This document shows positions 8,274 to 56,990 of a stretch of 64,000 bases of DNA, in pieces. Source of the stretch: an uncultured Chloroflexia bacterium (GTDB lineage Bacteria > Chloroflexota > UBA6077 > JACCZL01); contig CAVXYC010000014.1 in NCBI GenBank assembly GCA_963765765.1, positions 1 to 64,000 of the forward strand. The letters run 5' to 3'. The notes under the pieces are model-generated. The model was not told the origin of the DNA and searched no databases. It saw only the letters and a program-made list of their open reading frames with translations. How positions within the stretch are numbered: position 1 is the stretch's first letter; every line of letters starts with the position of its first letter. Both the position numbers and the translations under genes were made by a program.

Positions 8274-9530
8274 TTAGAGCACAGGGTGGAAGATCGCGTT
8301 CTCGTGTTGCTTCAGTACCCCGTCTAGCTCTGCCGACGGGGCTACTACGTCAAGAGAGCGCACGTGGAATAGCTCACCGCCGCGCGCCGCGAAGGGCTCA
8401 TTGCCTTGCTCCAGATCGCGGGCGAGCTTGAGTAGCTGTCGGCGATACATGATGATCGCCAGATCGGATGTTCCGAGATGCTCCTTGGTGCGATTCATGA
8501 TCGGCCCCATGCTCTCGGTCGCCATGGAGTCCTGCGCGCGGAAATCCCAGATGCCAGAGAATGACACGTTTCGCTGCATCTCACGATCGATCTGATAGTC
8601 GTTGTGCCGATTGGCCACGGGCATGATGGAACCCTGCGGCCGGGTGGGCGGATTCCCGGCGCGGGCCCGCGACTCGGCAGGGATCGGCTCGGCCGAGTTC
8701 CAGACAAATCGCCATCCGGTGCTGGTGTGATCGTCCATGGGGAACCACGCGCCGCTCGCGTACTGAGTGGTGTTGCTGGGGATGATGCTATAGCCGGGTA
8801 GCAGGCATTGGGTGATGCGCCAGTAATAGCCATCATCCGCGTCCCGCCGTGCTCCGTAGCAGAAACCGTAGTCAGTCTCTTTGATAGTGAGCTTGGGGGA
8901 GCCATGGTGCATCAGGACGGCGCCGTTGCTGCTCGTGCGTCGAAAGGCCCGGTCACCGCCGTCGAGTAGCTTGTGCAGAAATGACACGTGAGCCGTATCA
9001 AGGTCGCCTTCCATCGCTTGCGCGTAGTTGCACTCGTGATACCAGCGATGCACGACGCGCTGATCGTCCGGCACCAGGCACCATTCAAAATGGGGCAGCT
9101 CGGGCTTCAGGTCCGGCGGGCCCATGTAGATCCAGATCACTCCGCCCCAGTCTTCGGCTGGGTACGCAGTAATCTTTGACCTTGTGCTTGAAATTACTTT
9201 CCGGGGGCTCGTTCGGCATGTCCACGCATTCGCCGGACGTATTGAACTTCCAGCCATGGTAGACACAGCGAAGTCCGCATTCTTCGTTGCGACCGAAGAA
9301 CATCGAAGCCCCTCGATGAGGGCAGTTCTCCGCAACGAAGCCGACTTTCCCTTCGGTATCTCGAAAGCCAATGAGCTTTTCGCCGAGCACGGTCAAGCGC
9401 ACCGGGCGCAGTCCGGCTCGGGCAGCTCATCCGCGACCAGGGCCGGTAGCCAGAAGCGTCGGAACAGATTGCCCATAGGCGTGCCCGGGCCAGTTTGAGT
9501 CAGTAGCTCGATGTCACTCGATTTCAGCAC
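8274..9530 (-). CDS. Rieske oxygenase paralog 2 (LigXa/phthalate 4,5-dioxygenase-like), frameshifts ~9410 and ~9175
   Basis: GTG start VLKSSDIELLTQTGPGTPMG; CPHRG...CVYHGW; mononuclear Fe motif EGDLDTAHVSFLH; AQDSMATESMG; EHLGTSD. Confidence 0.9.
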
Positions 9531-43464: not shown

Positions 43465-43974
43465 TCAGCGCCTCGCGGGAATCATTTCGTCGAGAAGCTC
43501 CAGGGCCGCACGAGCGAAGGCGTCCATATTGCCGATGCGATCGGGACTGGCGGTCTCGATGGTGACAGCACGCTCGGTTGGACCGGCAACCGCGAGACAA
43601 ACATGCCCAGCCGCGTCGCCGTAGCGATTGCCCGTTGGTCCGGTGGCGCCTGTCTCACCCAAGCCCCAGGTGGTCGCGTGAATGTCACGTGTACCTCGCG
43701 CAAGCACCAGCGCATGACCTTCGGTGGAGGCGCGTGGGTTAGTAAGGACTTCTTCTGACAGATGGAGCGCTGCTTCTTTGGCCACGCGTGTGTAGACCAC
43801 CGCGCCGCCGACGAAGTAAGCCGAGGCTCCTGGGACCGCCAAAAGGGCCGCGGAGATCAGGCCGCCGGCAGATGACTCAGCAACAGCGATCGTGTCACCG
43901 CGCGCTTTGAGGCGCTCGCCCACCCGCTCTGCCAGGGCAACCAATCCCGCGAAATCCACACCGCTCTCGGCCAT
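43465..43974 (-). CDS. CinA/PncC-family nicotinamide-nucleotide amidohydrolase
   Basis: IAVAESSAGGLIS, VPGASAYF, ETGATGPTG. Confidence 0.9.
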   Translation of the reverse strand: MAESGVDFAGLVALAERVGERLKARGDTIAVAESSAGGLISAALLAVPGASAYFVGGAVVYTRVAKEAALHLSEEVLTNPRASTEGHALVLARGTRDIHATTWGLGETGATGPTGNRYGDAAGHVCLAVAGPTERAVTIETASPDRIGNMDAFARAALELLDEMIPARR

Positions 43975-44091
43975 GCCGCCACCTCCAGAGTTGCACTCAA
44001 CTCGCTGAGTATAGCCGCACGTCAACGGCGCCAAAATCTCACTGGCTGGCGTACACTGCGAAGACCAGTAACGATCGAGGAGCATCGCCAG

Positions 44092-44952
44092 ATGGATATC
44101 GGCATTGGGCTGCCCGCCACGATTCCGGGAGTGAAACCGGACCAGATTCTCGACTTCGCTCGCAAGGCCGACGCTGGACCGTTCACCACGCTGACGATGA
44201 TCGACCGACTCGTATTCGATAACTACGAGCCGCTGGTAACGCTTGCCGCGGTGGCGGTTGCCACCACAAAGGTGAAGCTGATGCCGTCTGTCCTGCTGGC
44301 TCCGCTCCGCAACACCGCCTGGCTCGCCAAGCAGGCCGCCACGCTCGACGCTATCTCGGGTGGTCGGCTGGTGCTAGGACTTGGTGTAGGCGCTCGGGGC
44401 GATGATTTCACGGCTGCTGAGGCAGATCTCGGCGGTCGGGGAAAGCACTTTGAAGAACAGATTCATTTAATGAAGCGAATCTGGTCGGGTCAACCGTTTA
44501 GCGACGAGGTCGGACCGATCGGCCCTCCACCCGGACGAAAGGGCGGGCCGCTGCTCATGATAGGTGGGTACCACCCGAACGCCATCAATCGTGTGCGATG
44601 GGCCGATGGATACGTGACGGGCGGGCGCCCGGTCTCAGAGCTACGTCAGTTCTACGATATGGCTGAGGCAGCATGGCGTGACGAAGGTCGCCCTGGAAGG
44701 CCTCAATTTCAATCTGGGATCCCATTCGCCCTTGGGGAGCGAGCGCTCGAAGGGACGATCGCATTTGGTCAGAAATACTACGCATTCATGGGCCCTAATG
44801 TGGCGAAACGAACCGCGGCTATCCTGAAGACACCCGAGGAGATCCGTGACGCCATCAAGGCGTTTCAGGACATTGGTACGGACGAGCTAACCTTCAGCCC
44901 CGGAGTTCCTGATCTCGATCAAGTGGAGCGACTAGCGGACATCGTCGGATAG
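44092..44952 (+). CDS. LLM-class flavin (possibly F420)-dependent oxidoreductase
   Basis: EPLVTLAAVA, LAPLR...LAKQAATLDAISGGRLVLGLGVG. Confidence 0.9.
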   Translation: MDIGIGLPATIPGVKPDQILDFARKADAGPFTTLTMIDRLVFDNYEPLVTLAAVAVATTKVKLMPSVLLAPLRNTAWLAKQAATLDAISGGRLVLGLGVGARGDDFTAAEADLGGRGKHFEEQIHLMKRIWSGQPFSDEVGPIGPPPGRKGGPLLMIGGYHPNAINRVRWADGYVTGGRPVSELRQFYDMAEAAWRDEGRPGRPQFQSGIPFALGERALEGTIAFGQKYYAFMGPNVAKRTAAILKTPEEIRDAIKAFQDIGTDELTFSPGVPDLDQVERLADIVG

Positions 44953-44966
44953 AAAGAGAGAAGCTC

Positions 44967-45755
44967 ATGGCAACGGAGCTAGCTACGCATCTAAATCTCG
45001 TCATTGCCAAAACCGGGCCTATGCTGGTGCGCACGCCACGCTGGGTACGCGCGAAGATCGGCGACGTATACGTCGCCGATAGCAAGAGGGTCATGCTGGT
45101 CCGCGAACCCGGAACGCTGCCTGTGTTCGCCTTCCCACGATCGGACGTCCGCGTGGACGTCCTGCGTCCTACGTCCGAGACGCGCGAGAGCCCCAACCTA
45201 GGACCGATCGCGTGCTATTCCATCGAGCTCGATGGAAGGCTCCTGGAGAACGCCGCCTGGACGTGGCCGTCGCTGCCCGACGAGTATGCTGACCTGGCCG
45301 ACCATGTGGCCTTCAGATGGGATGCAGTCGACCATTGGTACGAAGAGGCGGAGGAGATATTCCGCCACCCACGTGATCCGTTCCATCGCGTGGATGCAAT
45401 CGGCAGCGAGCGCCACGTGCGCATCTTGCACAATGGCCAGGTCATCGCCGAGTCACGTCGACCGCGACTACTCTTCGAGACCGGGCACCCAGTTCGGTAC
45501 TACCTGCCGACCGAGGACATCCGGATGGAGCTCCTTGAGCCAACTGATTCCATCTCCGCCTGTCCCTACAAGGGCACAGCGAGCTACTGGCGTGTCAAGG
45601 ACGATGCGAGCGGCCGCGATATCGCCTGGTCTTACGCCGACCCCATTCGGGAATGCCCGTCCATTCGGGGGCTGATCTCCTTCTACAACGAGCGTATTGA
45701 CGGCATCGAAGTAGACGGCGACCTGGTCACAAAGCCGCAGACAAACTGGTCCTAG
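44967..45755 (+). CDS. Tandem DUF427-domain protein
   Basis: Two repeats; HPRDPFHRVD, LFETGHPVRYYLP, CPYKGTASYW, AWSY. Confidence 0.9.
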   Translation: MATELATHLNLVIAKTGPMLVRTPRWVRAKIGDVYVADSKRVMLVREPGTLPVFAFPRSDVRVDVLRPTSETRESPNLGPIACYSIELDGRLLENAAWTWPSLPDEYADLADHVAFRWDAVDHWYEEAEEIFRHPRDPFHRVDAIGSERHVRILHNGQVIAESRRPRLLFETGHPVRYYLPTEDIRMELLEPTDSISACPYKGTASYWRVKDDASGRDIAWSYADPIRECPSIRGLISFYNERIDGIEVDGDLVTKPQTNWS

Positions 45756-46053
45756 CACCGAAGGAGTGACGCGTGACAGCGGGGCGGGTGGCCGACCTCT
45801 CCTGCCATTTGACACGCCTATGACCGTGACTTCCGCGTGGGGCTCGCCGCTCTCGCGGACCGCCTGATCTGTCAACAAGGACGATCCGGACGTCACATAT
45901 TTGTCACGTTCGGTTTGATTGTGACCGGCACCGCAATCGCGTGAGTTGAGCTCTCTGCGACGTTGACGCAGATCTCACCCGGCCTTATGTCCTTCTCCCA
46001 GTCGCCGCCGGACCGCGGTCGAGCCCACCCGGCAGCTCCGTTCTGGCCGGCCC

Positions 46054-46069
46054 CGGCACAGGGGCTGCG
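46054..46069 (+). promoter_or_regulatory. Sigma54-like -24/-12 motif
   Basis: CGGCACAGGGGCTGCG (GG-N10-GC), 50 nt before ATG 46119. Confidence 0.4.
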
Positions 46070-46118
46070 CTAATTCCGCTTTGACAGCAGGCACGAGCCG
46101 AACGTCTAGGAGGAACCA

Positions 46119-46452
46119 ATGCGGCGAATGATCGCGACCGGCCTGGCGGTGCTGGGCCTAAGCGCGTCCTCGCTAGCTGGGGCGCTACGCGCGCCTGCCG
46201 ATGCGCACGCGCTGACCGAGTCCCCTATCACCAGAGCGGCTGAGGTGTGCCGTCAGGCGGACGAACGCGGGGACCTGAAGGCTTTAAGCATCACGCGGGG
46301 CGACTGCGTGGACTCGCTCGATCGGGCCGCGTACCGAGCAGGCAACTCATGACATCGCTGCGCTCTGCGCGGTGGTGGGCGTACAGACGAACGTGGGCGC
46401 CACCACGACGAATCAGTGCATTCGGAACGTCGAAGACCTTTTAGCCATCTAA
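46119..46452 (+). CDS. Small secreted four-cysteine protein (one apparent extra base ~46320)
   Basis: AGGAGG RBS; signal ending AHA; EVCRQ...RGDCV, then after frame correction ALCAVV...TNQCI to TAA 46450-46452. Confidence 0.65.
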
Positions 46453-46653
46453 TCGTGGCCGGTCGAGCGTTAGGGCCAACCGAGGCCGCTCCGGCCCCAG
46501 AGCTCAGTGGCGCCCGATTGAGATCGACGGCGTCCAGCCAGACAGACCCGAAAGAGATAAGGATCGCGGGCTGATTCCCGCAGACCCCTCAATGTTGTGG
46601 ATCTTCCGAGACGGGTCCGTGCCTCCCCGACTCTCACGGAGCTCGGCGAGATG

Positions 46654-48045
46654 CTAGTCGCCGTGAGCGTCGGGGTCGAAAGGAGGTGTCGCTGTTGGAG
46701 TCGGAATTGGCCCGGAAGTCGGGGTGGAGGCCAGGGTCGGCGTCGATGTTACTGTTGGGGACGGAAGCGATAAGGATGCTCCACCGACCGCCGCGGCGGC
46801 GTTGATCCGACCGTGCGCGGTGAAGTTCCTAAAATCCGTCCCGGTCCCTCTCGTGCGATCCGCCGTACTCTCAATTCGGTTCCGGACGCAGCCGTTGTCT
46901 TTGGGCTTGCAGAGGTCAGTCGACCAGATGAGCCCGGCCAAGCCCGCCACGTGTGGGGTGGCCATGGATGTCCCGTTGAGGGGGGCGTACCCACCCGTCC
47001 CTGATCCCCAGAGGGCCGTGCTGACCTTCGGTGCGGTCGACAGGATATCCGCGCCGGGCGCGGCCACGTCGACCCAGTTACCACCATAGTTGGAGAAGCT
47101 TGCTCTGGCATCCTTGCGGTCAGTCGCGCCAACGGCGATAGAGTTCGCATAGGCGCCCGGATAGAATCCCCAGTTCTGTCCGTCATTGCCCGCCGCAGCA
47201 GCGATGACAACTCCGGCATCCCACGCGTGGTTGACAGCCAGCTCGAGCGTCTGCGAGAGCGAGTATCCACCCAAGCTCAGGTTGATCACCTGAGCACCAT
47301 CATCCGCGGCGGCGACGATCCCATTAGCAATCCAATCCCACTGCCCGCTGCCACTGTCGTCCAACACCCTGTAGTTCCAGACGGAGCACTGCGGGCAGGT
47401 GCCGCTGACGCCCGACGTGTTGTTTGTACTTCGCCGCGACGCTCCCCGCAACGTGGGTTCCATGACCGTACCGGCCATCGGCCGACCCGCTACCTGTGAA
47501 ATCTCGGCTCCGGGCAATGGCGAGATCTTCATGGGTCGAGTCGACACCGGTATCGATGACGGCCACATTGACGCTCGAGCTGCCTTTGATCCCGGCAGTG
47601 TTCCAGACTTCGTACGCATCAATGTCGGCGTCGGTGGTGCCGCCCGACTGACCCGTATTGCGATACTGCCATTGCTCGTCAAACCGAGCATCGTTGGGAT
47701 ACGTCGCCCCGTGGGTGATCGCCTCATAGCGGCGGTTGGGCTCTGCTAATTGCACATTGGGGTTCTGTCCGTAAGCCGCGGCGGCTGCCACCTCGCGGCC
47801 TGGCGGGACTTGGACCACCTGGACGTCGATCCGAGGGATTGTCGATCGTACCTGCGCCTGCTGCGCCCGATGAGCGTCGGCCACCTCTTGTCCCGGGGTT
47901 CCCGGGCGAAACTTGACCAGCACCTCCCCCGACGACGGGCGAGGCGGCTGGGCACGCTGCCTCGCCCGCGGAAACCGAGCGGTATCAAGGCGAAGCACAG
48001 GGCGATCATGGCAAAGGTTAGAACAACACGCGGTACCGTGAGCAT
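46654..48045 (-). CDS. S8 subtilisin/thermitase-like secreted protease, several frameshifts
   Basis: Signal, propeptide GEVLVKFRPG...AEPN, VAVIDTGVD (Asp), GHGTHVAG (His), AAAGN, GTSMATPHVAG (Ser), Pro/Thr tail. Confidence 0.9.
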
Positions 48046-48374
48046 CGTTTCCAGGAGGTCCTGGGAGTGCCGAGGCTGCTGCTCAGGCTGTCTCGACCTC
48101 CATGTCCGCTGGACGCAGGCGCATCGTTTCGAGACTCACCACGCCTGGCGGACGATGTCCAGGTAGAACCCAGACTAAATGCCGGAGTACGCGTTCGCCC
48201 CAGGCCGAAAACGGACGGCGCTCTCGCTGTTCGCGGCGGGCCTGATGCATCGGATGCCCAGATTAGTGAGGAGTGGTCCGCTGATGCGGCGCAACGCAGG
48301 TCCTGGAGCATCGGTCCTTGAAACTCGCGGATGTCGTGCTCCCTGCGGCGAACGATCTGCAACGGTAATGTGAT

Positions 48375-48401
48375 TCAGCAAATCCGAAAACTCGTCGATA
48401 A
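48375..48401 (+). promoter_or_regulatory. Sigma28 (FliA/SigD)-type promoter upstream of flgM remnant
   Basis: TCAG-N15-GTCGATAA versus consensus TAAA-N15-GCCGATAA, exact spacing, expected position. Confidence 0.65.
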
Positions 48402-48445
48402 TGGTAGCGAGTGGTAGTCGCGGAATATCGCGAAAAGGACAAGGC

Positions 48446-48674
48446 ATGGAGACCGAGATCACCCAAGCGCAGGCGTCTCGCGCAATAGATGGTCTCAATG
48501 CGGCGCTCATAGTGGGGTCTCAGAGTATCTGTGGCGTGCCACGTGCGGGCCAGTCAGCGGCGAACCAGTCAGATGTCCGGTGGCGATACGCCCACGAAAA
48601 TCAAGGAAGACTTCGGGGAGTGGACGTCCGCTGCGTCCGGTGAGCTACTCGTCCTGAAACTGATCGATGGTTAA
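48446..48674 (+). pseudogene. flgM: Degenerate anti-sigma28 flgM remnant
   Basis: AAGGA RBS and ATG; DVR, then in shifted frame KIKEDFGEWTSAASGELLVLKLIDG*, resembling the FlgM C-terminus; stop overlaps flgN start; synteny. Confidence 0.5.
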
Positions 48675-49140
48675 AACGACGGTCGCAAACGATGCGCTCT
48701 TCGAGCTGGTGAACGCTCTCGACTGTGTATCCATGACGCTCTCGGAGATGACGCGTGTGCTGGAAGCCCAACGCGAAGCAGTGTCGTTGAACGACCTATC
48801 CCGGCTTCTCGTCGTCACGGGCGAGCAGGACGAACTGACGGCTCAACTTGAGCGATGCGACCGTCGGCGCCAGCGAGCGCAAGCGCACATTGAGCGCGAC
48901 CTCGAGGTCGTTGGACTGCGCGCCATCATCGCAGCACTACCTGACGCGCTCCAGTTCCGCACTCGCCTCACCGAGCTGGCCGACGCGATCGGTCCGAAAA
49001 CCGAGGCCCTTCGCGAGCACGGTCGATTTCCCTCGCAGCTCCAGATAGCGTCCATGGAGCAAGCTCGACAATCCCGCGCATATCTGCTCCAGGAAGCCGG
49101 CAGAGAGCCAGCATACGCTGCTCCGTTGTTCACTCTATGA
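48667..49140 (+). CDS. flgN: Flagellar export chaperone FlgN-like (open, possibly decaying)
   Basis: Helical pattern LEAQREAVSLNDLSRLLVVTGEQDELTAQLERCDRRRQ; C-terminal AY; position before flgK. Confidence 0.7.
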   Translation: MVKTTVANDALFELVNALDCVSMTLSEMTRVLEAQREAVSLNDLSRLLVVTGEQDELTAQLERCDRRRQRAQAHIERDLEVVGLRAIIAALPDALQFRTRLTELADAIGPKTEALREHGRFPSQLQIASMEQARQSRAYLLQEAGREPAYAAPLFTL

Positions 49141-49470
49141 TCGATACGGCCTTCGGCCTCGCTCCGGCGTTCCGTGCCCTGCACACTCAGCAGACGGACT
49201 AGCGCATGACGACTCGAAATGTGGCCAGCGCGATTACCTGGGGCTTCAGGCGACTGGGCGCCAGCTTTGTGGTCACAGCCTGCCTGGACACCGCCAACGC
49301 CCACAAGAATCTGAATCGATCAAGGCCAGCCAAGCTTCGCTCCACGATAGCGGACACTGATTTCGTCCCGGCCATTACGGGTCTCACCGAGCAGGCGACG
49401 GTTTTCAAGACCGCCGTGGAAGAAGGTCGGTCGGCCATTCCGCTTGGCCCGCCGGATCACCTGGGGCAGA
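49137..49470 (+). pseudogene. flgK/flgL: Deletion fusion of flgK 5' end to flgL 3' end, in-frame TAG at 49200
   Basis: ATGA overlap with flgN; FGLAPAFRALHTQQTD*RMTTRNVASAITWGFRR resembles FlgK N-terminus; LRSTIADTDFVPAITGLTEQATVFKTAVEEGRSAIPLGPPDHL resembles FlgL C-terminus. Confidence 0.72.
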
Positions 49471-49479
49471 GGAGTATTT

Positions 49480-49664
49480 ATGGCACCCGTTGACACTAGT
49501 GGCTTGGGAAGACTCGAAGCGCTCGTGCTCGCTGACGAGCCGACTCTCACGTTTCCCGAGGTGCTGCCCCGTTTTGAATTCGTGGCCGAGTCAGCGTTCA
49601 TTGGGAATCAGCGTGTCCCCACATGTACGACCAGCTCGGACGCATCACGCTCGCTGAGCCCATT
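49480..49664 (+). pseudogene. fliW: Internally deleted fliW remnant
   Basis: AGAGGAG RBS; MAPVDTSGLGRLE...TLTFPEVLPRFE resembles FliW T.RFG..E...I.FPEGLPGFE; only ~60 codons; directly upstream of csrA. Confidence 0.65.
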
Positions 49665-49916
49665 GTGCTCGTTCTGAGCCGTCGCGCCGGCGAATCCATT
49701 CTGATCGGCGGCGAGGTCGAGGTCATCATTCTGGGCAACGAGGGCGGCCAGGTCAGGGTCGGCATCCGCGCCCCACGAAACATCACCGTCCTTCGGAAAG
49801 AGCTTCTCCAGGAAGTGGAGGACGAGAAACGCCAGCCCGCCTCCGGCACCGTCCCCGGCGGCCTGAGCGCCCTGGCCGAGAAGACCGAGATCGGACCGAA
49901 GTCGATAGCCAAGTAA
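49665..49916 (+). CDS. csrA: Carbon storage regulator CsrA/RsmA (with C-terminal extension)
   Basis: GTG start; LVLSRRAGESILIGGEVEVIILGNEGGQVRVGIRAPRNITVLRKEL. Confidence 0.9.
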   Translation: MLVLSRRAGESILIGGEVEVIILGNEGGQVRVGIRAPRNITVLRKELLQEVEDEKRQPASGTVPGGLSALAEKTEIGPKSIAK

Positions 49917-49989
49917 CCGTTCGCTCGATTGTCTTTGGTCTAGGAGAGCTCGCTTCGACTGAAGCGGGCTCTCCGTTTTGTGCCTGGAT

Positions 49990-50200
49990 CTCGAGCTCGC
50001 TGGTACTACAGAACCTGGCGGCTGGTCTCTCGAACGAGGAGATCGCGGAACGGATGGGCTTCGCCGAGAGTACGGTGAAGAATCGACTCTCGATGCTCTT
50101 TCTCAAGATTAGCGTCGCCGATCGTACGCAAGCCGCCATCTACGCCATCCGTCACGGTTTCGCGCCGCTCGACCCGGCAACATCTGATTCGCTTGCGTGA
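49990..50200 (+). pseudogene. Orphan LuxR/NarL helix-turn-helix fragment
   Basis: VLQNLAAGLSNEEIAERMGFAESTVKNRLSMLFLKISVADRTQAAIYAIRHG; no start or receiver domain. Confidence 0.8.
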
Positions 50201-50815
50201 TCGAGCAAATCGACGGCCCAAACGCCATAACACTGGCGCGAGCCTAGCGGTGTATGACTCATTTTTGTTGGTCGTGTACCGGGGATGCTGGGACGCGCTC
50301 CTGGGACCGCCGACATATTTGACTGAGACCCAGCCTAGCGCGATCGGATCGCGCGCATGGTTCATGATGACGTTATAAGGACTCGCCGCGCGCGTCATAG
50401 CGGCGGACCTTAGGACGCGATTCTGCAAGACAGGCCGCAACGACGATGCGACAGAGGAGCTGGCAGTCATCCGCACCGGACTTGATATGGCCGTGGTGAA
50501 ACTTCGAGATTGCTCGTGGAGCTACGGCCTCCCGCCTGAATTCAGCGCCTACGCGCCCTACCCGGCACTCGGTCAGCCATCGTTTGTCGAGTTGAAACTG
50601 CGGTGGGTCGCTCATTCGGCTCGACACACCGCGGCATACATCTTAATCTCGGTGGCCTGGGCGAGCATCAGCGGCGGAATGGCGACCCCTAGCTTTCGGG
50701 CCGCTATCCGCGCCGCGAGCAGCTGAAGCACCCGTCCGTCAGGCGGGCAATTCAGGCAGTTATTGGTCGCTCCGTCCGATACACTGATAGGCACTTCTCG
50801 CCCGGTGACTGCTAC

Positions 50816-51394
50816 TCAGTCCAGTGCCTTGCGCATCGCCCGTTCCAGAAGGTTGCCACCGGACTTCTCTTCTTCGGGCTCGCGATCGGTGGGGTAGATT
50901 TCACGCACCTGCCCAGTCTCATCCGGGTCGTCCACGACGAGACGCTCACGGAGCACCGTATCCTCAACAAGCCGCGTTTCGTTGCGGCGAACATGGCGTA
51001 CCCGCACGTGCTCCTTCAGCACCAATCGTTTCACCACGACAAGCTGCTCTTCGTAGATCGGAATGACGGTCACGCCGTCCTCTTCCCAGGGCTCGGCGCG
51101 CTCTGAGACTTCCTGACCAATCGGTTCACGCTCAAGCTGCACTTCATCTCGAAGTGCCTCAACCTCAAGGTGAGCCGGGACGGCTTCGACATCTCGTCGA
51201 ATTCGAACCGTACCTGCTGGCACCACAGTCTTGCGCGCAATCAGCTCCTCTTCACGCAGCTCCATGGAGCGCCTCTCGGAACTGTTAGCCGCGCTCGGAA
51301 TGTTGGATTCATCGATCGTCTCCCGCGGTTCGGTCGGCAGTGTGGCGTCGTCGCCTACATCATGCCGGTCAATGTGCTGCCGTTGTCTTTCCAT
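50816..51394 (-). CDS. YsnF/AvaK (DUF2382) domain protein
   Basis: AGGAGG RBS; MELREEELIARK..V..GTVRIRR, IPIYEEQLVVVKRLVLKE. Confidence 0.88.
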   Translation of the reverse strand: MERQRQHIDRHDVGDDATLPTEPRETIDESNIPSAANSSERRSMELREEELIARKTVVPAGTVRIRRDVEAVPAHLEVEALRDEVQLEREPIGQEVSERAEPWEEDGVTVIPIYEEQLVVVKRLVLKEHVRVRHVRRNETRLVEDTVLRERLVVDDPDETGQVREIYPTDREPEEEKSGGNLLERAMRKALD

Positions 51395-51493
51395 GTGCGC
51401 CCTCCTGGCCGTTGAGTCTCAACCATTGATAGTCTTGGAAGGGAGGCCATTGTAATGGCCATCCCTCCGCTTTAATTGCAGCCGCACGGGTCA

Positions 51494-52789
51494 TTACCGT
51501 CTCGGGACTTGCCCGCGCGCATCCTCCCAGGCTTCACGGGCATTCTCTCGTGCCCGGTCCCAGGTGATCGTGCGATACCCATTGCGCCGCGACCATTCGC
51601 CGTAGCCCGAGTCGAACTCCGTTTGCGCGTCATTCCAATCGCGATCCCGATAGCGCGGGTCGTGAGCCATCTCGTAGCCGAAGCGGTAGCCCGGCTCGGC
51701 ATCCTCCCATCGGCCGCCCGATGAACCGGAGCGGGACTCCCAGCGCTGCCGATACGACGGCATCGCATCGCCCCAGGAATTGGATCCGGCGCTCCGCTGG
51801 CTCAATTGGGTGTCGCCGACGACGCGAGCATCGCCGGTCTGTTTGACTTCCGCAACTTCGCGTTGGACGTCAGCTTCGACGCGCTCGGTATCCTCCACCG
51901 TCTGTTTCGCAAGCTCGACCTCCTCATAGACCACGGCCCGCTTCTCGGCGATGACCTCTTCGCGGCTGAGCTCGATCACGATCTCCTCGTTGCCGGTAAT
52001 CGGGCGATCCGATGGCCGACGATCGACCGGGCGTCGCTCGACCACCGCTTCCTCATGCGTGACCGGCACGTCCGTCGATCGATGCTCGGTGACGACATCC
52101 TTCTCGATTCCGACTTTCCCGGCGTCCGTTCGCTCTTTCCGCGCCGTGAGCTCTTCTTCCCGGAGCTCGAGGCTCTCCGTTTGACTCGCTCCGCGCGTTC
52201 CCGGAATGTTCCGTCGAGCGGGCGGCCCCACTGTAACGTCCGCCGGATTTCTCATGGGCGCCGCGCTTGTAGGGGCGGTGTCGCGCGTGTCCATGTCATA
52301 GGCCCCATGGGCGTGCAAGATTACGCGGGCATCGTCATAGCGCCCATCAGCCTTGACGGTGACAATCGTTCGACCGCCTTTAAATTCCTCGTCGTAGTAG
52401 CGAGCGTCCTCCTCAGGCACCCCCATTCCAGTTAGGGCGCCGATAAGCCCACCGGCCGCGGCGCCCACCGCCGCACCGCCCAGCACACCAGCCAGCATGC
52501 CACCGGCCAACACGGGGCCGATGCCTGGGATCAGACCCGCCGCCAGGGCGCCCAGCACTCCACCGACAACTCCGCCAGTGAGTGCGCCGGTGGCCGCTCC
52601 TCCACCAACGTCGCCGGTGTCCTTCTCGCCGGCCGAACGTATGGCCCCCTCCTTGTGATCTGAGTCGCGGGCCGCGATCCCAATTTGATCGTCACGAAAT
52701 CCATCGCGCTTCAATTCATTGATCGCGTATTCAGCGTCTTTACCGTCATGGAACACGCCCACGACGGTGGTTCGATCATTTGCTGCCAA
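51494..52789 (-). CDS. General-stress (YflT-like/glycine zipper) plus YsnF/AvaK protein with Trp-rich C-terminus
   Basis: [67 protein letters not shown]; TTG start. Confidence 0.88.
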
Positions 52790-53247: not shown

Positions 53248-54159
53248 ATGATGACGCTACCCGGACCGCTTGAGCTGGTAAAAGAGTCGTTCAGCGAATG
53301 GCAGAAGGACAAAGCGTCGCGTCTCGCTGCCGCGCTCGCCTACTACACGGCATTCTCCATTGCCCCGCTCTTACTACTCACCATCACCGTTGCCGGGATG
53401 GTGCTCGGAGAGCAGGCGGCGCAAGGCACAATCTTCGCGCAACTCCAGGGGCTGCTCGGGCCAGAGGCGGCCGGATTCTTTCAGTCCGCGGTCGCGCATT
53501 CCCGTGAGCCGGGAGCGAACACCATCTCCGCCGTGGTCGGATTGGCAACGCTTGTCTGGAGCGCCTCGAATGTCTTCGGTCAGCTTCAGGATGCGCTGAA
53601 TACCATCTGGGAGGTGAAGCCGAAGCCCGCGGGAGTTGTGGGCGCTGTAAAGCGTCGGATCGTGCCCCTCTCGATGCTCCTCGGGTTCGGCTTCATCTTA
53701 TTAGTCTCGCTGCTTCTCAGTGCGGGGTTATCCGCCGTGAGCACGCTGCTCGGTGACGCACTTCCCGGTTCAAACTTGCTCTGGGAGATCATTAACAACA
53801 TCGTCTCATTTATCGTCATCACGCTGTTGTTTGCCGCAATCTTCAAGGTGCTGCCCGACGTGGAGATCAGATGGAACGACGTCTGGATCGGCGCCCTCGT
53901 GACGGCGGCCCTGTTTATCGTGGGGAAGACGCTGATCGGTCTCTACCTCGGGCATGCGAGTGTCGGATCGACGTACGGGGCCGCGGGCTCGCTGCTGGTT
54001 TTCCTGGTCTGGGTGTACTACTCGGCACAGATCCTTTTCTTTGGGGCGGAGTTTACGCAGGTCTACGCGCGACAGCGCGGCTCTCGCATCGTACCGAGCC
54101 CGGACGCGGAGCCCTTAACGGCGGAAGCCCGGAGTGAGCAGGGAATGGTCCGTCGGTAG
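53248..54159 (+). CDS. YihY/virulence factor BrkB-family membrane protein
   Basis: RLAAALAYYTAFSIAPLL, LQDALNTIW, FKVLPD, YGAAGSL..LVWVYYSAQILFFGAEF. Confidence 0.93.
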   Translation: MMTLPGPLELVKESFSEWQKDKASRLAAALAYYTAFSIAPLLLLTITVAGMVLGEQAAQGTIFAQLQGLLGPEAAGFFQSAVAHSREPGANTISAVVGLATLVWSASNVFGQLQDALNTIWEVKPKPAGVVGAVKRRIVPLSMLLGFGFILLVSLLLSAGLSAVSTLLGDALPGSNLLWEIINNIVSFIVITLLFAAIFKVLPDVEIRWNDVWIGALVTAALFIVGKTLIGLYLGHASVGSTYGAAGSLLVFLVWVYYSAQILFFGAEFTQVYARQRGSRIVPSPDAEPLTAEARSEQGMVRR

Positions 54160-56876: not shown

Positions 56877-56990
56877 TTCTAGTGGTTCCGACCCGCCGTC
56901 GTGACACGGGTCCACGCCGGTTAGCTAGCTGGCGAGGCCTCGAACGTTCACGGCGCGCTCGCCTTCCCCACACCACCCCGATAAAATGAG

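Follow-up and report, generated by a model that had tools for sequence, protein, structure and literature searches.

A collapsed flagellar late operon in a Chloroflexota bacterium and the apparent retention of flgN and csrA

When a flagellum is lost, do the genes of its late operon decay together, or can some outlast the structure that they served, and how would these still be translated among the remains of their neighbours? The question is raised by a short locus in the window, the whole 64,000-nt stretch analysed here (C14:1-64000 of assembly G000, which comprises 6.49 Mb in 33 contigs and is 91.8% complete with 6.85% contamination), where an initial annotation had recognised a collapsed fossil of flgM, flgN, flgK, flgL, fliW and csrA. 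Comparison with an intact orthologue from the same genus, together with blastn and tblastn, confirms the six pieces in canonical order on one strand. The word fossil suits flgG, flgM, flgK/flgL and fliW but not flgN and csrA, which appear to have been under purifying selection after the collapse; nor would standard annotation miss everything except csrA, as had been supposed, since flgN passes its Pfam cut-off (PF05130, 34.2 vs 30.5 bits). Beyond what had been described, the region includes a flgG tail, a sigma28-type promoter, a terminator and a truncated LuxR regulator, and a second flagellar remnant lies on another contig, C1.

An intact orthologue and the layout of the collapsed locus

The reference genome, G001, was picked up by a FlgN protein search of 61 genomes. 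Its locus L037 holds the operon flgG-flgM-flgN-flgK-flgL-fliW-csrA intact, each gene named by Pfam (100, 158, 463, 292, 160 and 83 aa from flgM to csrA), on a contig carrying fliA, flgF, flgG, flgM, flgN, flgK, flgL, fliW, csrA and a convergent fliC; two genes without a Pfam family (L037:7560-8207 and 9030-9356) flank fliA inside this cluster. The CsrA and FliN proteins of G001 carry the NCBI organism name “[Chloroflexota bacterium]”, and the best plasmid match of its FlgK is Thermomicrobium roseum. Measured from the beginning of flgM to the end of csrA, the operon has 3761 nt in G001 and 1471 nt in the window. Three blastn blocks tie the two loci together (48337-48504, E 1e-21; 48633-49272, 1e-60; 49648-49875, 2e-44), and aligned blocks are about 60-78% identical in DNA. 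In genome-wide tblastn searches the best matches of FliW (E 2e-5), FlgK (7e-5) and FlgL (1e-3) fall at this locus and in order, whereas those of FlgM are weak (E 0.02 and 0.64) yet lie within the DNA blocks of E 1e-21 and 1e-60. None of the FlgM, FlgK/FlgL and FliW fragments has a Pfam or NCBIfam match at E<=10, so that comparison with an orthologue is needed to recognise them. What is left amounts to 75 of 100 FlgM codons, 47 of 463 for FlgK, 60 of 292 for FlgL and 65 of 160 for FliW, and the region is thus the orthologue of an intact flagellar late operon, shortened by deletions whose endpoints could be mapped on G001 (1948, 282 and about 60 nt). Its features are collected in Table 1.

Table 1. 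Features of the collapsed late operon and its immediate surroundings, in window coordinates.
Feature	Position	Strand	Remarks
flgG tail	48300..48368	+	last 22 codons and stop; DNA block 48302-48440 73% identical to G001; 5/11 conserved columns changed
sigma28-type promoter motif TCAG-N15-GTCGATAA	48375..48401	+	position as in G001
flgM remnant	48446..48674	+	internal loss of 60 nt; one extra base near 48580 in the window
flgN	48667..49140	+	full length (157 aa), open; Pfam PF05130 E 4e-8
FlgK N-terminus (47 codons)/FlgL C-terminus (60 codons), in-frame fusion	49137..49493	+	junction 49277-49284
fliW ribosome site and 65-codon fliW remnant (start 49480)	49468..49677	+	10/20 conserved columns changed
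csrA	49665..49916	+	83 aa from GTG; Pfam PF02599 E 5e-19
Terminator-like hairpin	49943..49982	+	14 pairs, T-rich tail; after csrA, where G001 runs on to convergent fliC
LuxR-type response regulator, C-terminal HTH	49997..50200	+	receiver domain deleted; Pfam GerE E 2e-12

Everything that precedes the flgG tail in the G001 cluster is gone, namely most of flgG, flgF, fliA, flhA and the motor genes. The sigma28-type pattern matches among 70 loci only in the window, G001 and L068 (a metagenome contig described below), with eight loose matches genome-wide. A FlgM remnant is present as annotated; the stop said to overlap flgN, however, sits one frame over in the window, where the frame from 48446 stops at 48643, and is in frame only in L068, whose flgM remnant is a single open 75-codon frame ending over the flgN start. 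The description of flgN as open holds, as do the ATGA overlap of flgN with the flgK remnant (49137-49140), the in-frame FlgK/FlgL junction, which joins flgK codon 47 to flgL codon 232 across 1948 lost nt, and the TAG in the flgK remnant (codon 22, 49200-49202); in L068 this is a sense codon, preceded by a one-base loss of L068's own. The former FlgL stop is now CAG (49467-49469), and 18/37 conserved columns are changed in the FlgK part and 17/31 in the FlgL part. Likewise borne out are the ribosome site of fliW (energy -10.2) and its internal deletion, 282 nt in frame near 49617-49628, after which the remnant's stop overlaps csrA by 13 nt. A terminator scan found one hairpin against 1.6 in shuffles, so the count alone is not significant and it is the position that fits.

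The LuxR remnant forms the right edge of the collapse, with an 81% DNA match to L048:912-1081, where the gene follows flgE in G001; window 49997-50579 consists of this truncated regulator and the decayed counterpart of a 97-aa gene, the next one after the LuxR gene in G001. Other neighbours are an S8 subtilase with prodomain, split over two frames (46654-47998, minus strand), which is mostly deleted in L068 and so is decaying in that strain, and, at 50816-52789 and 53248-54159, two DUF2382 genes (one with a YflT domain) and a BrkB/YihY-family gene, unmatched by the G001 contigs examined. Searches of 45700-48330 and beside C32:48.6 kb gave no further remnants, and repeats at the deletion junctions nothing informative.

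The collapsed layout recurs in other sequences. L068 is 89% identical over 48313-49268 with no large gaps. Among four sequencing runs compared, X1 provides a 267-nt contig that spans the FlgK/FlgL junction with two differences, and a second, of 344 nt, that leads from the last part of csrA into the remains of the LuxR gene. Run X1 and the window's source may be related, although elsewhere X1 contigs show as many as 11 differences in 151 letters. The fliW junction is not crossed by any compared run contig with 31 letters on either side, and its support is indirect: a 14-residue extension, common to three related CsrA proteins, has its frame start in that junction, and these lineages probably share the fliW deletion. 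Small breaks need more caution. Across 64 orthologues of G000 and G001 (25,645 codons), 10 contain 11 frameshifts in all, about one per 7 kb of conserved coding sequence; nine further “stop” flags were not counted as breaks, since they lay ahead of the start codon or within a linker that aligned poorly (eight shown). The breaks of G000 orthologues are single indels with no true internal stop, so single-base breaks in this assembly should not be read as pseudogenes without reads. The extra flgM base may be such an assembly error, and the loose end of a contig from run X3, aligned by eye, also goes without it; the TAG in the flgK remnant is not of this type.

Flagellar genes elsewhere in the genome

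A genome inventory, called for in the initial annotation, was made with family searches of G000 (91.8% complete), which gave no Flagellin_N, Flg_bbr_C, FlhA, FliD, FliF, MotB or FliW (PF02623) and no FliA above cut-off. When 36 proteins of the G001 flagellar cluster were searched against G000, 24 had no match, four matched distant paralogues only and eight matched two remnant loci. The second of these (L069; C1:56614-57130, minus strand) comprises 48 codons of fliM followed by fliN, which shows an apparent one-base loss near 56897 and a SPOA domain 76% identical; a neighbouring MCP gene has been deleted. The flanks of the G001 motor genes match window 43475-45721 and the genes after G001 flgE match 50006-50579 and 63685 onward, from which it follows that much of a flagellar cluster dropped out between 45721 and 50006, the full contiguity of this cluster being inferred, as it is split over several contigs in G001. 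In all, three places that hold flagellar genes in G001 are each unbroken in the G000 assembly and emptied of them there (window 45721-50006, C1:56.6-57.1 kb and C32 near 48.6 kb).

The annotated loss of flagella in a Chloroflexota organism thus agrees with structural genes and FliA not being found, in a genus whose CsrA and FliN are named as Chloroflexota; that the phylum is mostly non-flagellated was an overstatement, Flagellin_N being present in 33 of the 61 genomes and flagella being described in PMC10284905 as ancestral, with widespread genes and several losses. The same set has csrA in 28, flgN in 27 and fliW in 25 genomes, and the 28 genomes without Flagellin_N include two with csrA and two with flgN, both together only in G000, counts in which kin are not independent and many genomes are incomplete. 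One of them, G036 (flgN, no flagellin match, 72% complete), is probably just incomplete, with a rod-type gene beside flgN on a 1.9-kb contig. csrA and flgN, then, normally go with a flagellum.

Unequal decay of the remnant genes

Evolutionary rates were compared between the window and G001 with five or six outgroups, by counting lineage-derived changes and altered conserved columns. The six remnant segments hold 84 window-derived and 8 G001-derived changes, with 55/110 conserved columns altered, and five of them have decayed alike, at 45-55% of such columns. The annotated view of a real deletion that kept gene junctions is supported (L068, X1 contig); the stepwise order attached to it stays conjectural. 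FlgN has 21 window-derived against 17 G001-derived changes and 12/51 conserved columns altered (p 0.002 vs remnants), and the CsrA core 4 against 2 and 2/30 (p 6e-6). Changes are also more conservative in FlgN 1-111 and the CsrA core (mean BLOSUM62 0.43 and 0.86) than in the remnants (-0.54), and the identity of FlgN to G001 (61.5%, against 44% expected at the remnant rate) was reached in none of 5000 simulations. Stop-codon avoidance in the remnants is not significant (1 seen, 2.5 expected, p 0.26). A pairwise codon model of G000 against G001 was unusable, synonymous sites being saturated (pooled dS 3.2) so that every segment looked constrained.

A comparison of two collapsed loci, those of the window and L068, gives 21 differences in 474 positions of flgN and 78 in 480 of the flanks. 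With this one partner sequence, and for csrA without a DNA comparison, flgN has 10 synonymous and 11 non-synonymous differences (dN/dS 0.37, p 0.038), as against dN/dS of 1.0-3.2 in four remnant segments, with synonymous rates that do not differ (p 0.34). Among the differences listed, 7/10 are synonymous in an RNA-run contig over flgN and 1/6 in a DNA-run contig over the fliW remnant. As judged from these substitution patterns, the fragments of FlgG, FlgM, FlgK, FlgL and FliW change as sequences no longer constrained at the protein level would, whereas the CsrA core and FlgN, the latter chiefly over its first two thirds, behave as proteins that are still constrained, and flgN and csrA show the signature expected of purifying selection after the collapse.

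In flgN this selection seems partly relaxed. The three closest outside relatives of FlgN agree at 101 columns, 23 of which are changed in the window (controls 0/78, 10/88 and 11/89); the last third of the protein is identical at 24/46 positions and radical changes are concentrated there. The predicted structure is a helical bundle (pLDDT 85) with FlgN 2fup as the top Foldseek row, at an E of only 0.11, and 11 close relatives are 92-98% identical, nine of them full length, in protein searches that return open frames only and are hence biased towards intact FlgN and CsrA relatives. An antisense ORF (48843-49304) was rejected as the cause of flgN conservation, since it leaves the most conserved first third uncovered. 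The export clients FlgK and FlgL are now a decayed fusion and no FlhA was found in G000. FlgN would be, as our best guess, either a stable helical chaperone for a non-flagellar partner or one kept foldable simply because it is translated. The main warning against taking conservation for function comes from FliN on C1, which in the same test has 7 against 4 changes and 6/38 conserved columns altered; with its apparent frameshift and radical changes, it tells us that slow decay need not mean function.

CsrA, proposed translational leaders and known systems

The window's CsrA scores 68.4 bits in PF02599 (cut-off 27), just below the NCBIfam equivalog cut-offs (72.7 against 73, 68.5 against 70.1). 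Among 56 csrA loci, 40 are FliW-adjacent, and all 40 encode N55 and A58. Of 16 positions conserved in at least 85% of FliW-adjacent CsrAs, start codon aside, the window keeps 14; the two lost are N55 (now K, 49827-49829) and A58 (now P). In the four collapsed-type CsrAs the RNA-binding positions L4, R6, V42 and R44 are all retained, K55 occurs in three and N55 in one, and P58 in the window only; these proteins vary at 4/52 core and 16/31 tail columns, the tail being variable in other relatives too (28/31). According to bioRxiv 10.1101/2020.07.02.184341 and PMC13407953, FliW binding requires N55, a contact residue described as unvarying wherever the two proteins are found together, and solved E. 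coli-type CsrAs have E54-K55 at the equivalent place. With K55 and no PF02623 match, the locus is, on its sequence, a remnant and no longer a member of the FliW switch; K55 itself may be drift after FliW loss rather than adaptation.

Searches for what CsrA might bind gave little. The flagellin-leader pattern has six matches in G000 and 3-7 in four relatives, two of them without csrA; no Rfam match to a CsrB-like RNA occurs in 45500-51000, and the genome's eight most GGA-dense windows look, by eye, coding or unstructured. The same density scan brought up Lys/Asp/Glu-rich short peptide repeats of KD type (C25, minus strand, about 90,050-90,330 on the reverse strand). A REP-like palindrome with a GGA hairpin loop has 33 exact 15-mers in G000 (one at window 28177), none in G001 and at most two in any of 60 relatives; as a CsrA target it was set aside and an ordinary REP is the default, given its many inverted pairs about 90 nt apart, copies at C18:113239 and 114065 flanking a Y1 transposase (113651-113884), and 6 sense and 8 antisense copies near gene ends.

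How flgN and csrA could still be translated is suggested by predicted ribosome-site energies: -10.2 for the fliW remnant, -4.1 (weak) for the flgM remnant, -1.9 for csrA and -0.9 for flgN, against a background mean of -3.2 and a 5th percentile of -8.6. csrA and flgN lack a ribosome site of their own, so each would depend on ribosomes finishing the gene before it; the open 65-codon fliW remnant, with its strong site and overlap with csrA, is predicted to be coupled in this way. All three internal deletions keep the frame when flgM is counted in its L068 form (1/27 by chance), the window's flgM remnant being out of frame. In Bacillus subtilis, CsrA disappears after a nonsense mutation in fliW and persists after an in-frame fliW deletion, and flagellin accumulating in the cytoplasm is harmful to non-secreting cells that lack CsrA (PMC6529632). 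We propose that, after flagellar loss, continued production of CsrA and FlgN would have been selected. The surviving deletions would then be those that left the preceding gene with its start, its reading frame and a stop overlapping the next gene, so that the flgM and fliW remnants would now be translational leaders. The flgK/flgL remnant would feed nothing needed, fliW being served by a strong ribosome site of its own, and would be free to gather breaks. CsrA, no longer accompanied by FliW or flagellin and with its FliW surface released (N55K), would be a constitutive translational repressor binding GGA hairpins, which plausibly first silenced leftover flagellin and later acted on other mRNAs. 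RNA run X17 has two short contigs, over flgN and over the fliW/csrA junction, that may be DNA, and no FliA above cut-off was found in G000 to read the sigma28-type promoter. On balance we lean towards this account, in which scraps of a fossil operon serve as leaders for two genes still under selection.

Three other accounts were weighed against it. An assembly or read artefact is scarcely credible: the indels of G000 do make single-base breaks suspect (flgM near 48580, fliN, the S8 peptidase), but these are single indels with no true internal stop, half of the conserved remnant columns are substituted, and a layout common to L068, run contigs and related proteins largely refutes an artefact for the large deletions. 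A decayed duplicate, the option left open by the initial annotation, would place a complete flagellar system, served by FlgN and CsrA, in the unassembled part of a genome with the completeness and contamination given above, and would account at once for the conservation of FlgN, CsrA and FliN. Against it stand the eight families without a qualifying match, the 24 of 36 cluster proteins without a match and eight found only at two remnant loci, the three contiguous, emptied sites, and CsrA N55K, which argues against a working FliW; flagellar loss fits better, and a duplicate is very improbable.

Harder to dismiss is a dying operon with a lag, in which CsrA was kept only while flagellin genes lasted and has no function today, and full-length translated flgN, csrA and fliN were held back by selection against misfolding. 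The similarly slow decay of FliN, the radical changes in the FlgN C-terminus and the CsrA helix, the rarity of csrA and flgN without flagellin, and the absence of FliA and CsrA targets from the searches of G000 all suit it. The constraint nevertheless persists between strains some 10-20% apart at free sites, L4, R6, V42 and R44 are retained in 4/4 collapsed CsrAs, and in the X1 strain, too, no fliC is adjacent, since one contig joins csrA to the LuxR remnant; moreover, no close-relative FliN was found, unlike FlgN and CsrA, and young bacterial pseudogenes are usually removed fast (PMC2916853). We regard a lag as a serious possibility, if an unlikely one; were it true, the locus would still be a clear record of flagellar loss, of modest interest. 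The translational-leader account, which we prefer, can be carried further: CsrA would be moving from a flagellin-specific FliW switch to a free regulator in a flagellum-less cell, the operon trimmed in frame with its dead genes as leaders, the residue at the FliW contact convergent with that of E. coli, FlgN with a new partner, and the GGA-loop repeat perhaps providing binding sites or a sink in place of CsrB, an extension that is speculative and quite unlikely as a whole. The csrA and flgN calls, in any case, do not imply motility.

CsrA is regarded as having started out in a flagellar module with FliW, its role as a global regulator being a later development (PMC13443453), and its control by FliW or by sRNAs has been reviewed (PMC7366521). 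In this locus one may be seeing the conversion of a flagellum-specific switch into a free-standing regulator: an intermediate with operon scraps attached, FliW cut in frame and N55 released makes the CsrA transition testable with a few synthetic genes, and hints that pieces of genes may be retained as translation leaders. The locus resembles the B. subtilis Hag-FliW-CsrA region (PMC6529632) in gene order, the fliW/csrA overlap and a C-terminally extended CsrA; flagellin leaders of G001 and G002 carry GGA motifs as in B. subtilis, and the natural fliW deletion is akin to the laboratory in-frame deletion. In contrast to B. subtilis, only 65 codons of fliW are left here, neither flagellin nor FliA was found and CsrA no longer has N55, which means that the partner switch as known cannot operate. 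With CsrA/RsmA of Gammaproteobacteria (PMC7366521), the window's protein shares the lack of FliW, E54-K55 and a conserved RNA-binding core, but its gene still lies in a flagellar operon, it has a long tail, and no CsrB/RsmZ-type RNA is evident.

Closer at hand, in the same class, family f13 has stand-alone csrA genes (G044, G047, G048, G061 and G062; loci L064, L102-L104 and L106) with N55 replaced by S, T or R, no adjacent FliW (5/5) and no FliW in six f13 genomes; G044 also lacks all seven flagellar families tested. Unlike the window, these genes have no operon remnants in the stretches examined, and G047 and G048 still have Flagellin_N matches; they possibly represent an independent, later stage of the same uncoupling. 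Second csrA copies away from fliW in two flagellated genomes (L105 and L107, in G014 and G019) keep N55. A full-text literature search, covering main texts (flagellar genes are tabulated in the supplements of PMC10284905, which may be relevant), returned no account of the locus or of CsrA or FlgN retention after flagellar loss; as far as searched, what is new is CsrA and FlgN apparently under selection in an operon collapsed in frame, flagellar loss in Chloroflexota being itself already published. The locus agrees with the losses in Chloroflexota (PMC10284905) and Actinobacteria (PMC10746217) in a history of vertical inheritance and repeated loss, and whereas those studies, in their available portions, deal with gene presence and absence, the comparison here concerns the fragments left behind and the putative selection on leftover genes.
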